A stretch of 24,000 nucleotides of DNA, from the NCBI RefSeq assembly GCF_000719515.1, contig NZ_JOGR01000001.1:16773-40772 (forward strand), read 5' to 3'. The notes under the pieces are model-generated. The model searched no databases and had not been told where the DNA came from. It worked only from the letters and a program-made list of their open reading frames with translations. Source of the DNA: Glycomyces sp. NRRL B-16210. GTDB lineage: Bacteria; Actinomycetota; Actinomycetes; Mycobacteriales; Micromonosporaceae. The translations under genes and the position numbers were made by a program. Positions 3,798-6,825 of the stretch are shown piece after piece. The stretch's first letter is position 1, and every line of letters starts with the position of its first letter.

Positions 3798-3913
3798 CCC
3801 TAGCCGGACGCGCCGGCGGCCCGGAGCCGTTGGCCTGGAAGAGGATCGAACCCGCGGCGGCTGCCTGCTAACCTGGTCCCGACACCACCGCCACGCCATT
3901 GGAGGTGCCACCG

Positions 3914-4261
3914 GTGTTCGGATTCGTCCAGGTGGAGAGCCAAGCCATTCGCAATGCGTCGCAGCAGATGCAGCAGTACGCCTCCCAGGCCGGGAGCCTC
4001 CCCGACAGCGCGGTGCAGGCCGCCGAACGCGCCGAGAGCGCCAACCGCGGCTTCATGTGCGCCGACGGCGCCAAGGACTTCGCCGACGACCTCAAGACCG
4101 ATATGCAAGAGCTCCAAGAACATCTGGACGACACCGCCGAGCTGTTGCAGGACATAGCCGACGACTGGGACGAGGCCGACGAGCACGGCGCGAGCGTGTT
4201 CAAGCCCATCGAGTCCGACCTCAGCGGATTCCGCGTCCCCACGATCCAAGGCGGGGTGTGA
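3914..4261 (+). CDS. Small helical protein S1 (~115 aa). EspC/PE-like partner of the downstream WXG protein; paralogous to 9494-9808 and 17539-17865(-).
   Basis: The ORF track gives 3899-4261. GTG 3914 sits 8 nt after GGAGG (3901-3905) and gives an N-terminus (MFGFVQVESQAIRNA) that aligns with MTWIDVDAEKLREA of S3. The C-terminal acidic motif IADDWDEADEHG resembles CADDMEAADEA (S2) and CADEHEGNDAA (S3). Confidence 0.7.
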   Translation: MFGFVQVESQAIRNASQQMQQYASQAGSLPDSAVQAAERAESANRGFMCADGAKDFADDLKTDMQELQEHLDDTAELLQDIADDWDEADEHGASVFKPIESDLSGFRVPTIQGGV

Positions 4262-4265
4262 CACC

Positions 4266-4796
4266 GTGCCCACCTTCCAGCAGTGCCTCGACGCCAACCC
4301 GACCGAGCTCATGACCCTCGGCGCCTCCATCGGATCGGCCGCCGCGCAGCTCACCCAGCTCGGCGCCTCCTACGGCACGACCGTCGCCGGCCTCGCCGCC
4401 TCCTGGCAGGGCGAGGACTACCAAGGACTCGTCCGATGGTCCGGCCAGGTCGCCGCCTTCATCGGCCGCAGCGACGCCGCGATGATCACCTGCGCCGGCG
4501 GACTCGGGACCACCGGCGCCGCCTTGATGGCCACCTGCACCGCCATGAAGGCCACCAAGCAGGCCGCCGAAGGCATCGGCTACAAGGTCCTGCCGACGCC
4601 GTTCGTGATCCTCGGCCCCAGCCAGTGGTCCCAGGTCTCCGCGGCCGGACCCGGCGCGCCCGCGGTCCTCGCCGCCTACCAGGCCGGAGCGGTCGCCTTC
4701 ACCACCGCCCTGGTCAGCATGTACACCGCGATCATCGCCCAGGACACGGCCGGGTACGCCGTCATCCGCACCGCCCTCGCCCTCAGCCCCTCCTGA
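4266..4796 (+). CDS. WXG-motif protein W1 (176 aa). Short member of the WXG100-like (T7SS-signal-type) family; candidate carrier or partner for the downstream toxins.
   Basis: GTG start 4 nt after the S1 stop. Contains ...LAASWQGEDYQGL... (W-x-G-x-D), preceded by the NPTELMTLGASIGSAAAQL helix that parallels NPGDLMKAAGAWMTLA in W2. Ala/Thr/Gly-rich hydrophobic C-terminal half. Confidence 0.7.
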   Translation: MPTFQQCLDANPTELMTLGASIGSAAAQLTQLGASYGTTVAGLAASWQGEDYQGLVRWSGQVAAFIGRSDAAMITCAGGLGTTGAALMATCTAMKATKQAAEGIGYKVLPTPFVILGPSQWSQVSAAGPGAPAVLAAYQAGAVAFTTALVSMYTAIIAQDTAGYAVIRTALALSPS

Positions 4797-4812: not shown

Positions 4813-5388
4813 ATGCCGACGACCAACCACGGCGCCCTGCCACGAAGCGGCGAGCGCAGGCCGCAGAGCGCCAACCCGACCTCCGTCGCGGGCGCGTCCG
4901 ACTTCCGGCGCACCATCGGCAACCGCGTCCCCTACGGGCAGTCGCGCCTGGGGCAGCACGTCGCCGACATGCGCACGGTGCAGCCGACGAAGCCGCCGTC
5001 GATCGCGCCCACGGTGAAGAAGAACCTCGCCGCCGCCGAACTCAGCGACGGCACGATCATCGACGGCACCAGCGGCGGCGCACTGGGGTGCTCGGAGAAC
5101 GAGATCCAGTCGAAACTCGACGCGCTCAACCAGAGCCGGGCCCCAAGCGACCAGTTGACGATCAAGGAGCTCTACACCGAGCGTCAGCCGTGCTGCAAAT
5201 GCGAGAACCTCATGAAGACCAAGCATCCCGACGCGAAGGTCGACTGGTCCGTGGAATTCTTCGACACTCCGGACGCGCAGTCCCTCTCGCCCGAGCAGCT
5301 GACGGTCATGCGCTCGCTCAACAAGTTCGAACTCGGTGAACTCAAGCGGGTGAGCTATGCCTACCATGGGGTCCCGTTGCCGGGTTAG
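4813..5388 (+). CDS. Polymorphic-toxin-type nucleic-acid/nucleotide deaminase (CDA fold), with CxE in place of HxE (191 aa).
   Basis: GGAGA lies 6 nt upstream of ATG 4813. GCSENE and YTERQPCCKCE motifs are about 30 residues apart, matching zinc-site spacing. Clear paralogy to the 5808 ORF: AAAELSDGTIIDGTSGG vs AAAALGDGSVVTGRSRG, YTERQPCC, EFFDTP. Confidence 0.7.
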   Translation: MPTTNHGALPRSGERRPQSANPTSVAGASDFRRTIGNRVPYGQSRLGQHVADMRTVQPTKPPSIAPTVKKNLAAAELSDGTIIDGTSGGALGCSENEIQSKLDALNQSRAPSDQLTIKELYTERQPCCKCENLMKTKHPDAKVDWSVEFFDTPDAQSLSPEQLTVMRSLNKFELGELKRVSYAYHGVPLPG

Positions 5389-5430: not shown

Positions 5431-5811
5431 TTGAGCCTAGAGGACGCGACGACCGCCGAGCTCGAACGAGTGGCCCGACTCGTCGCCGAGGCCCTGGAGC
5501 GGGCGGGCATCCCCTGGTCGCCCACCGAACAGCCCCTCGACCACGATGTGGCGCAAGTGATCGTGGACGACTCCGATGACGACGACCGGGGCGTGTTCGT
5601 CTCCTGGACGCTCTCGGTGCAGGAGAACTCCGCCATGCACGCGCTCGTCGTCGAAGGCGACCACGCGAACCCGGCGATCCTCCAGGCCGGGCGCCGGTTC
5701 GAGGAGGCCCTGGACCGCATCCAACGGGTGCTCCGCGGCGCGGGGATCGCCTCGGTCAACCCCGAGGACGACTTCGACCCCTACATGCTGAAGATCGTCA
5801 GCGCCCCGTGA
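5431..5811 (+). CDS. Candidate immunity protein for the upstream deaminase (126 aa, acidic).
   Basis: TTG start with GAGGAGGA 7 nt upstream. Sits immediately downstream of the toxin candidate. Homologous to the C-terminal half of the 5808 ORF (GVFVSWTLSV vs GVHVSWHVGA; RVLRGAGIASVNPEDDFDPYMLKI vs AVLDEAGIAAEPVTDGTAPYSLHL). Confidence 0.6.
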   Translation: MSLEDATTAELERVARLVAEALERAGIPWSPTEQPLDHDVAQVIVDDSDDDDRGVFVSWTLSVQENSAMHALVVEGDHANPAILQAGRRFEEALDRIQRVLRGAGIASVNPEDDFDPYMLKIVSAP

Positions 5812-6602
5812 GCTTCGGCCCCGACCTCCCCGGCATCGCGTTCGAACGGCGCCGCCGGGACTACCCCGGCGCCCCGAGCCCGATCGCCCGCAACTACGCC
5901 GCCGCCGCGCTCGGCGACGGCTCGGTCGTCACCGGGCGAAGCCGCGGGAGCCTCCTGCACGCCGAGATCGACGTGCTCCGCCAGGCCTCGGCCGTCGGGT
6001 CCCCCGTCGCGGCGATCTACACCGAGCGGCAGCCGTGCTGCGAGTGCGAGGCCGCCCTCGAAGCGGCCGGCGTCGCGCCCGACGCGATCACCTACTCCGC
6101 CGAGTTCTTCGACACGCCCGGCGAACCGACCGCCGAGGACGGCGCCGAACTGGCGCGGCTCAACCTCGGCGTGTTCGAGCACCTGCGGCAGATGATCCGC
6201 GAAGCCGAGGGCTCTCAACCACGCCCGGCCGGAGCGGACCCGGCCGCGGCGCTCGCGCGTTCGGTCGCGGGGCATATGGAACGGCACGGGCTGCGGGTCG
6301 CCGCAGAACCGGACCTCGGCGCCGAGCCCGGCGTCGAACTGGCCGTGGACGGCCTCGCCGACGGCGCGGGCGGCGTCCACGTCTCCTGGCACGTCGGCGC
6401 CGACCTCACCGCGCGCGTCCTCGACGCGGTGCACGGCGACCGGCTGGAGGACCCGGCGCTCACCGAAGCCGCCGCGATCAAGCAGCACCGGCTCGCCGGA
6501 CTCGCGGCGGTCCTCGACGAGGCGGGCATCGCCGCCGAACCGGTCACCGACGGCACCGCGCCCTACAGCCTCCACCTCCCCGTCCACACCGGTCCCCGGT
6601 GA
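5808..6602 (+). CDS. Deaminase domain (HAE...PCxxC) fused in-frame to an immunity-like domain (264 aa).
   Basis: GTG 5808 overlaps the TGA of the upstream gene (GTGA). LLHAEIDVL and IYTERQPCCECE motifs are present. Residues ~140-264 align with the free-standing 126-aa protein at 5431-5811. The ORF track shows a continuous ORF. Confidence 0.7.
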   Translation: MSFGPDLPGIAFERRRRDYPGAPSPIARNYAAAALGDGSVVTGRSRGSLLHAEIDVLRQASAVGSPVAAIYTERQPCCECEAALEAAGVAPDAITYSAEFFDTPGEPTAEDGAELARLNLGVFEHLRQMIREAEGSQPRPAGADPAAALARSVAGHMERHGLRVAAEPDLGAEPGVELAVDGLADGAGGVHVSWHVGADLTARVLDAVHGDRLEDPALTEAAAIKQHRLAGLAAVLDEAGIAAEPVTDGTAPYSLHLPVHTGPR

Positions 6603-6825
6603 AGCGCCCGCCGCGACTGGTTGCCGCGCATATATAGTCGCAACGACGAGTCATGTTCCCCCACCCCAGGAGCACTGATCCATGGCACCGATCCACACGC
6701 GACGGCAGGCACCCCGCGACGGTCGCGCCAGGACGCGGCAGCACCCGCCCGGCCCCGCCAGAGATGCAGCCGCCCGAGCCGCAGCCGCCCGCGCCGCGCT
6801 GGCCCTCTGAAGGTAAGGAGCAGCC

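Follow-up and report, generated by a model that had tools for sequence, protein, structure and literature searches.

Why should a toxin domain and an immunity-like domain share one polypeptide in a locus where, immediately upstream, a toxin and the protein in its immunity position are encoded by two separate genes? The question is raised by a 24,000-nucleotide stretch of Glycomyces sp. NRRL B-16210 (contig NZ_JOGR01000001.1, positions 16,773 to 40,772 of the forward strand), hereafter the window, whose G+C content is about 70%. It holds an ESX/type VII secretion system (T7SS)-substrate-type polymorphic toxin locus and, within it, a gene of 264 codons, here called the fusion, in which a deaminase domain is followed by a domain related to the product of the preceding gene, I1. 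Six Glycomyces loci carry this in-frame fusion at the same place, and in none of them is it interrupted by a stop or frameshift. An initial annotation of the window had described the gene as a deaminase toxin domain fused in frame to an immunity-like domain, and this description stands: the first half scores above the cut-off of Pfam family PF14440, and the second aligns with the I1 family by hhalign.

The fused gene and its two halves

The features on which the question turns are these.

4813..5388, + strand: T1, the toxin of cassette 1, 191 residues; a leader of about 65 residues (MPTTNHGALPRSGERRP...), then an XOO_2897-clade deaminase domain (PF14440, E 9.1e-7, 29.4 bits vs cut-off 27)
5431..5811, + strand: I1, the immunity-position protein of cassette 1, 126 residues, so named for its position 3' of T1; no Pfam family
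5808..6602, + strand: the fused gene, 264 codons plus stop, GTG start (orthologues P0002-P0005 and P0007)
5808..6212, + strand: its N-half, residues 1-135, a leaderless deaminase toxin domain (PF14440, Foldseek)
6213..6242, + strand: its linker, residues about 136-145 (alignment of orthologues; low confidence in models)
6243..6599, + strand: its C-half, residues about 146-264, a complete immunity-family domain, alpha-beta-beta-beta-alpha-alpha-beta (hhalign vs I1 family)

Cassette 1 is split, as the initial annotation had it: the stop codon of T1 (5386-5388) is followed by a gap of 42 nucleotides and then by the TTG start of I1 at 5431. The GTG start of the fusion overlaps the TGA stop of I1 (5431-5811) as GTGA, which had likewise been read correctly. 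The G+C content at third codon positions (GC3), taken in one frame, reaches 95.6% over the N-half and 89.1% over the C-half, values comparable to those of the neighbouring genes and expected for a single coding sequence.

The Pfam model PF14440 (XOO_2897-like deaminase) matches residues 28-103 with 34.3 bits (E 2.6e-8), above its curated cut-off of 27, and residues 26-129 are 35% identical to T1 (E 8e-19). These matches place the N-half in the XOO_2897 deaminase family. The zinc-binding and catalytic set, which had looked intact at first sight, is indeed complete: the stretch LLHAEIDVL supplies H51 and E53 of the HAE motif (nucleotides 5958-5966), and IYTERQPCCECE supplies C77 and C80 (nucleotides 6036-6047) of the PCxxC motif, present here as PCCEC (P76-C77-C-E-C80, nucleotides 6033-6047). 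When the N-half was compared with the PDB using Foldseek, only cytidine deaminases were returned (E 5e-4, TM 0.53-0.59), and the modelled N-half has a cytidine-deaminase fold.

The relationship of the C-half to the upstream 126-residue protein, proposed from the alignment of the two by eye, was confirmed at two levels. In a single comparison, residues 149-257 of the fusion and 14-122 of I1 are 29% identical (E 3e-4); with five sequences per side, hhalign aligns the C-half with the I1 family over 120 columns at a probability of 98.9% and an E-value of 1.1e-17. W194 of the C-half is family-invariant across 92 sequences. The I1 family consists of free proteins of about 110-160 residues, and has no Pfam model and no PDB relative by sequence. 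Its genes lie directly 3' of XOO_2897-type deaminase genes in the window, in Glycomyces loci L005, L006 and L008, in Salininema (L007) and on a metagenome contig (L013); judged by gene position, the family behaves as the putative cognate immunity family of XOO_2897-type toxins. A word-indexed protein search with the immunity alignment gave the query itself as its sole return.

The immunity domain is also met in other arrangements. P0008 (L014, 840-1685; 281 residues) is a tandem double of it, and in P0107 and P0156 (Dermatophilaceae, Nostocoides), which belong to a 12-member cluster, it forms the C-terminal part of a 328-residue protein. The latter opens with an unrelated region of about 190 residues that has no Pfam match.

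The junction between the two halves was located from both sides. The N-half ends at an invariant R-E/D-A-E-G, the same point where related free toxins end; these finish 4-6 residues past the equivalent of MIREA, and free immunity proteins start about where the linker of the fusion starts. Thus, a natural toxin C-terminus is joined to a natural immunity N-terminus. Between the flanking helices lie about 10 variable residues and no long translated spacer, and the linker differs between orthologues in both sequence and length. Read-through of a translated intergenic spacer was considered and rejected, since the toxin C-terminus abuts the immunity N-terminus with about 10 residues between the helices. 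An internal start yielding a free immunity protein was also rejected: a start-codon scan gave no conserved in-frame start in the linker with a Shine-Dalgarno sequence. The ATG at M129 is conserved but has no Shine-Dalgarno sequence upstream.

How unusual the fused architecture is was assessed with a profile of five fusions, scored against 1.84 billion cluster representatives in an exhaustive hidden Markov model search (E <= 1e-3). Both halves were spanned in 2 of the 199 matching clusters (P0003 and P0007). The best 150 of the 199 matches, together with the orthologues in hand, comprise 6 fused, 58 deaminase-only and 90 immunity-only proteins. Among the matches listed, the deaminase-only proteins carry the domain at the C-terminus, after Rhs, Hint or other N-terminal regions, and the immunity-only proteins are free chains of about 110-160 residues. 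Sorted into split and fused forms, a survey already envisaged in the initial annotation, the homologues occur as split pairs in L005, L006, L007, L008 and L013 and as the fusion in the six Glycomyces loci. Since split pairs are found elsewhere, separate genes are the rule, and the fusion is a derived form seen only in Glycomyces.

Conservation of the fusion in Glycomyces

The six fused loci were compared with one another; identities are given relative to the window protein.

P0002, locus L001: 67% identity
P0005, locus L002/L003: 61% identity
P0004, locus L004, a Glycomyces metagenome-assembled genome (MAG): 60% identity
P0003, locus L011: 58% identity
P0007, locus L009/L010, G. buryatensis: 44% identity

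Synonymous divergence among these orthologues is considerable (dS 0.6-1.7), and the ratio of nonsynonymous to synonymous substitution (dN/dS) is 0.20-0.47 for the N-half and 0.36-0.65 for the C-half. The N-half is the more conserved, with 61-70% identity vs 44-63% for the C-half, and H51, E53, C77 and C80 are invariant in five of the six orthologues, the set being lost in P0007 of G. buryatensis. The syntenic order is EspC-like gene, 176-residue gene, T1, I1, fusion and YbaB-like gene, and the GTGA overlap with I1 is kept in four loci. In the MAG locus L004 the fusion directly follows the 176-residue WXG-like gene, at the place held elsewhere by T1. The fusion is orthologous throughout, whereas T1 and I1 vary in type or are replaced. 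It is present or absent between species, never swapped, and is absent from the Glycomyces genomes L005 and L006. At the same time it evolves much faster than its flanks: for the pair L002-L004, dN is 0.36 vs 0.034 for the 176-residue gene.

The G. buryatensis orthologue deserves separate mention. All three zinc ligands of P0007 are replaced (H to P, C to S and C to A), yet its reading frame is intact, its N-half is 50% identical to that of the other fusions, and omega (dN/dS) in this half is about 0.3. The family motifs NYAA..L.DG and YSERQP are retained, and translation starts at an ATG with an AGGAGG Shine-Dalgarno sequence. Because this protein, although devoid of zinc ligands, is intact and constrained, at least one species retains the fusion without any need of catalysis. 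T1 is replaced in G. buryatensis by a YwqJ-type deaminase toxin (241 residues) with its own partner of 157 residues. Downstream of that pair, four I1-type paralogues (127, 145, 125 and 124 residues) flank P0007 (L009, 7616-10158); these genes look like an orphan-immunity array left after toxin replacement.

Location, known relatives and readings of the fusion protein

Whether the fusion protein leaves the cell bears directly on what it may do. A leader motif, M-x-x-T-N/K-H/R-G-x-L-P-x-S(-x-x-R), is common to four types of toxin in loci of this kind, with different toxic domains; among its carriers are T1 (4813-4900), a TNT toxin (PF14021, E 1e-27) and an unclassified 201-residue protein in L001. 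We regard it as a candidate export or adaptor signal of actinobacterial T7SS-associated toxins. Its sites outside the window are L005 4217-4732 (- strand), L006 within 6479-7372 (+ strand), and L001 5397-6002 (- strand) and 6987-7577 (+ strand). The fusion has neither this motif nor a WXG100 match or WXG-type helical domain; it starts directly at DLSxAAFxRR, the toxin-domain helix that comes after the delivery modules in Rhs and Hint relatives. The initial annotation was thus right to note that no N-terminal export domain precedes the deaminase. With the leader missing, export by the same route is unlikely, and the fusion protein is probably cytoplasmic.

The arrangement of the two domains was modelled with AlphaFold. 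Five sequences gave a predicted local distance difference test score (pLDDT) of 67.9 and a predicted template modelling score (pTM) of 0.47; 92 sequences, namely the six fusions and 86 free immunity proteins, raised these values to 85.5 and 0.53. MAFFT stacked deaminase-only sequences onto the C-half, and the alignment used was therefore that of fusions plus immunity-only proteins, in which the signal for the N-half and for interdomain contacts comes from six sequences. In the 92-sequence model the core of the N-half reaches a pLDDT of 88-97 and the C-half 87-98, while residues 101-144, comprising the last toxin helix and the linker, stay at 53-57. In the two models the score falls below 50 at residues 135-142 and 135-138.

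Several known systems combine a toxin with its neutraliser. DddA-DddI and SsdA-SsdAI are interbacterial deaminase toxins delivered by the type VI secretion system, each with a small immunity protein encoded alongside. To our knowledge these pairs are always two proteins, and we know of no description of a fused version. The cassette-1 pair T1/I1 follows the same pattern of adjacent toxin and immunity genes, although DddA and SsdA belong to other deaminase clades. CapRel, on the other hand, is a fused toxSAS-antitoxin protein. A further single-chain case is EzeT, a zeta toxin of E. coli with a cis-acting antitoxin domain (Rocker and Meinhart, PMC4826407). Like CapRel and EzeT, the fusion links a toxin and a putative neutralising domain covalently in one chain. 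Its families are unrelated to theirs, however, the toxin half being a deaminase and not a zeta toxin or toxSAS. In addition, those two are type II toxin-antitoxin or defence genes for which inhibition in cis and a trigger have been demonstrated, whereas the fusion, whose neutralisation is putative, lies in an interbacterial-toxin locus.

Further parallels are found among the polymorphic toxins, whose cassettes have been described as separate toxin and immunity gene pairs (Zhang et al., 2012, PMC3482391). The fusion resembles the solo toxin-immunity cassettes of that work in lacking a trafficking domain ahead of its toxin domain, in following a complete toxin-immunity pair within a T7SS-type locus, in its toxin-then-immunity order, and in a toxin clade typical of such systems. 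It differs from them in having toxin and immunity domains in one reading frame (6/6 orthologues) and in not being polymorphic, since it is orthologous and syntenic over six loci. As in the polyimmunity proteins (PMC3482391), its immunity family also forms a tandem double, namely P0008; those proteins, however, consist of immunity domains only, whereas the partner domain in the fusion is a toxin.

As for the toxin half, the XOO_2897 clade has been tied to T7SS, with SUKH4 listed as its immunity partner (Iyer et al., 2011, PMC3239186). The fusion shares with the XOO_2897-like toxins (PMC3239186; PF14440) the family of its N-half, the HAE/PCxxC motifs, a short domain that ends after the last helix, and a predicted cytidine-deaminase fold. 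Unlike in these toxins, where the domain is C-terminal after trafficking, Rhs or Hint modules, it is N-terminal and leaderless in the fusion. The immunity family of the fusion also differs from SUKH4 and is not in Pfam. Other members of the clade deaminate cytosines in single-stranded DNA (ssDNA) in a base-editor assay (bioRxiv 10.1101/2023.05.21.541555). Phrase searches of the literature, including PMC3482391, returned no natural toxin-immunity fusion, only EzeT-type toxin-antitoxin proteins and an engineered expression platform. A covalent, conserved toxin-immunity fusion is a new element in a polymorphic toxin locus.

The reading that we favour, with a probability of roughly 55%, is that of a fixed, cytoplasmic, self-neutralised fusion of a toxin cassette and its immunity partner, retained without need of export or, in one species, of catalysis. 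The protein would have originated from a toxin cassette and immunity pair of the ESX/T7SS-associated polymorphic-toxin locus, through the loss of the stop codon in a tightly spaced toxin-immunity pair or through a small deletion, and the fused form would then have been fixed in the genus Glycomyces. Being leaderless, it would stay in the cytoplasm of the producer, where the immunity domain would hold the deaminase inactive at an obligatory 1:1 stoichiometry, either within one chain or between two chains paired reciprocally head to tail. The selected role would be a non-killing one, for instance an immunity-type or neutralised-store function of the two-domain protein within the immunity array. 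Neutralisation by the C-half, the cytoplasmic location and the selected function are all points that we infer. A recent tandem duplication of cassette 1 was considered as a source of the gene and rejected, because free immunity proteins encoded elsewhere match the C-half far better (E 1e-25 to 1e-15) than I1 does (E 2.8e-5).

Several points weigh against a self-neutralised, non-killing protein. Five of the six orthologues keep the full catalytic set, and conservation is stronger in the N-half, which also fits a catalysis that is conditionally used. Were the immunity surface taken up in cis, the protein could hardly act against incoming toxins. The AlphaFold models offer no confident relative placement of the domains (pTM 0.47 and 0.53, six paired sequences). 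Finally, among the matches listed there is no unfused, leader-bearing toxin close to the N-half for the protein to guard against, the nearest deaminase-only protein being T1 (E 1.6e-15).

An alternative is that the fusion is an autoinhibited single-chain toxin-antitoxin of the CapRel/EzeT type. A phage protein, a stress or a protease, for instance, would act as the trigger that frees the deaminase, which would then mutate or damage the producer's nucleic acid, with abortive infection or growth arrest as the outcome. A toxin and a cognate-type neutraliser do share one chain in the domain order of CapRel, a likeness of architecture only; five orthologues share an unchanged set of catalytic and zinc residues, with the N-half under the stronger constraint; without an export leader any activity would be intracellular; and ssDNA cytosines are deaminated by other XOO_2897-clade members (bioRxiv 10.1101/2023.05.21.541555). 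We nevertheless consider this alternative possible but rather unlikely, since the gene is strictly syntenic in the T7SS-type toxin locus of one genus, with no mobile or defence-island context, and its translation is coupled to that of an immunity gene; purifying selection persists on the G. buryatensis orthologue despite the loss of all three zinc ligands; and the trigger has no support, nor does the docking of the two domains have a confident prediction. Export of the fusion as an effector, with the help of the EspC-like and 176-residue proteins and with the immunity domain as a safety catch cleaved at the linker outside or in the target cell, would agree with the arrangement in L004, where the gene directly follows the 176-residue WXG-like gene at the usual place of T1, and with a junction motif REAEG and a flexible linker that are invariant or nearly so. 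This seems improbable for a protein with neither the shared N-terminal leader nor a WXG-type helical domain. Moreover, REAEG is the natural end of the last helix in free toxin relatives, so its conservation needs no cleavage site, and a catalytically dead G. buryatensis effector would be useless.

It could also be that nothing is selected at all. The initial annotation had considered a stop-loss relic of an orphan cassette, and a neutral gene with a lost stop, heading to pseudogene, would be consistent with the displaced-cassette position downstream of a complete toxin-immunity pair, with the loss of zinc ligands in one lineage, with the absence of the gene from Glycomyces L005 and L006, and with a protein evolution faster than that of the flanks in the L002-L004 pair. 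This part of the annotation did not hold up. The reading frame is intact in six lineages at dS 0.6-1.7 and down to 44% identity, dN/dS is well below 1 in both halves, even the dead copy has an omega of about 0.3 in its N-half, and the in-frame GC3 of 89-96% is typical of coding sequence, all of which makes decay very improbable. To a sequencing or assembly artefact masking a stop or frameshift between two genes we give virtually no credence. A stop or frameshift between the domains was among the refuting outcomes that the initial annotation had named, and none lies there in the six loci; the same junction recurs in six diverged sequences from independent assemblies (NCBI genomes, the MAG, ENA and Logan), by which an assembly artefact is ruled out.

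What a self-neutralised fusion would mean is twofold. A toxin-immunity protein kept through speciation suggests that cassettes can be domesticated into stable cytoplasmic proteins, and it makes one ask why selection would keep a toxin on a permanent tether. The fusion also offers a compact natural system for studying how an immunity family outside Pfam, with at least 90 sequence clusters, might block a deaminase of the XOO_2897 clade, the ssDNA cytosine deaminase activity of whose other members is relevant to base editing. Going further, it is conceivable, though unlikely, that the protein is a naturally caged nucleic-acid deaminase. It would be a switch inside the cell, with toxin and immunity domain in a single chain and fixed in a T7SS toxin locus, that opens when a specific trigger dislodges or cuts off the immunity domain. 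Such a trigger might be a phage protein, a protease made under stress, or a toxin or immunity protein arriving from a competitor. If true, such a protein would represent a new class of fused toxin-antitoxin or abortive-infection effector made from the parts of interbacterial warfare, and a ready template for switchable base editors.

The surrounding toxin locus

The other genes of the window that were assigned are as follows.

3899..4261, + strand: EspC-like small helical protein, 120 residues, opening the conserved operon-like block (PF10824 T7SS_ESX_EspC, E 6.9e-9, 36.5 bits vs cut-off 23.5)
4266..4796, + strand: WXG100-like protein, 176 residues (weak WXG100 match, E 0.053)
6826..7560, + strand: small-alarmone-synthetase-like protein, 244 residues (PDB 8vx3 'SaSAS', E 1.2e-27; no Pfam match)
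7572..7847, + strand: 91-residue protein, partner of the 244-residue alarmone-synthetase-like protein
7983..8684, + strand: YbaB-like protein, 233 residues, conserved downstream flank of the toxin block (PF02575, E 3.5e-7)
8745-9497, + strand: second YbaB-like gene
9812-10774, + strand: PPE/WXG-like gene
10881-12443 and 14681-16384, + strand: paralogous proteins of 520 and 567 residues (weak WXG100-like region; low-complexity Gly/Pro-rich tails)
17539-18027, - strand: second EspC-like gene (PF10824, E 5e-5)

On the + strand the toxin block runs from the EspC-like gene through the 176-residue gene, T1, I1, the fusion and the 244/91-residue pair to the YbaB-like gene. The EspC-like gene (3899..4261) is syntenic in L001, L002/L003, L004, L005 and L009, and the YbaB-like gene (7983..8684) is syntenic with 69-84% identity between loci. 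The 176-residue protein is conserved to 79-94% between loci, with dN/dS of 0.07-0.49. This gene and T1 are separate reading frames in different frames, spaced by 16-17 nucleotides in the window, L001 and L003 and by 12 nucleotides in L005. Because they are always separate, the delivery-type helical protein is apparently made apart from the toxin and does not form an LXG/WXG-toxin fusion with it. On the ENA contig L002 the gene caller merged the two differently, which may reflect an assembly difference.

T1 and I1 occur as two types that are 38-40% identical to each other. The position of the first zinc ligand in T1 is a cysteine (C93-S-E, nucleotides 5089-5097), and its second motif reads PCCKC. 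Among the cassette-1 deaminases this first position holds Cys (CSE) in the window and in both L005 and L006, and Asp (DSE) in L001 (6987-7577), L002/L003, L011 (784-1314) and a further relative, P0029; the fusions carry His (HAE) there. Asp is unusual as the first ligand of a zinc deaminase.

The 244/91-residue pair is found only in the window genome; it is missing from the interval between fusion and YbaB-like gene in L001, L002, L004 and L011. It resembles an additional RelA/SpoT-type toxin and immunity cassette inserted into the T7SS toxin locus, and the 244-residue protein may carry a weaker version of the shared leader. A scan for promoters and terminators gave no signal above the shuffled background.

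Further downstream, the window contains a second EspC-like gene and more WXG100- and YbaB-like genes. The second EspC-like gene adjoins a gene for a 359-residue protein (16460-17539, - strand), and this arrangement (16460-18027, - strand) suggests a second substrate module in the region. The 520- and 567-residue paralogues end in a near-identical acidic motif, ...W-G-F/I-x-N-E-D/E-D-D-P-Y-A, and each is followed by a protein of about 110 residues. Finally, in related loci the EspC-like gene is preceded by two small genes and by a gene for an AAA_10 (PF12846) ATPase of about 1050 residues (L001 1-2833, L002 745-3909, and L009 348-3488 on the - strand).

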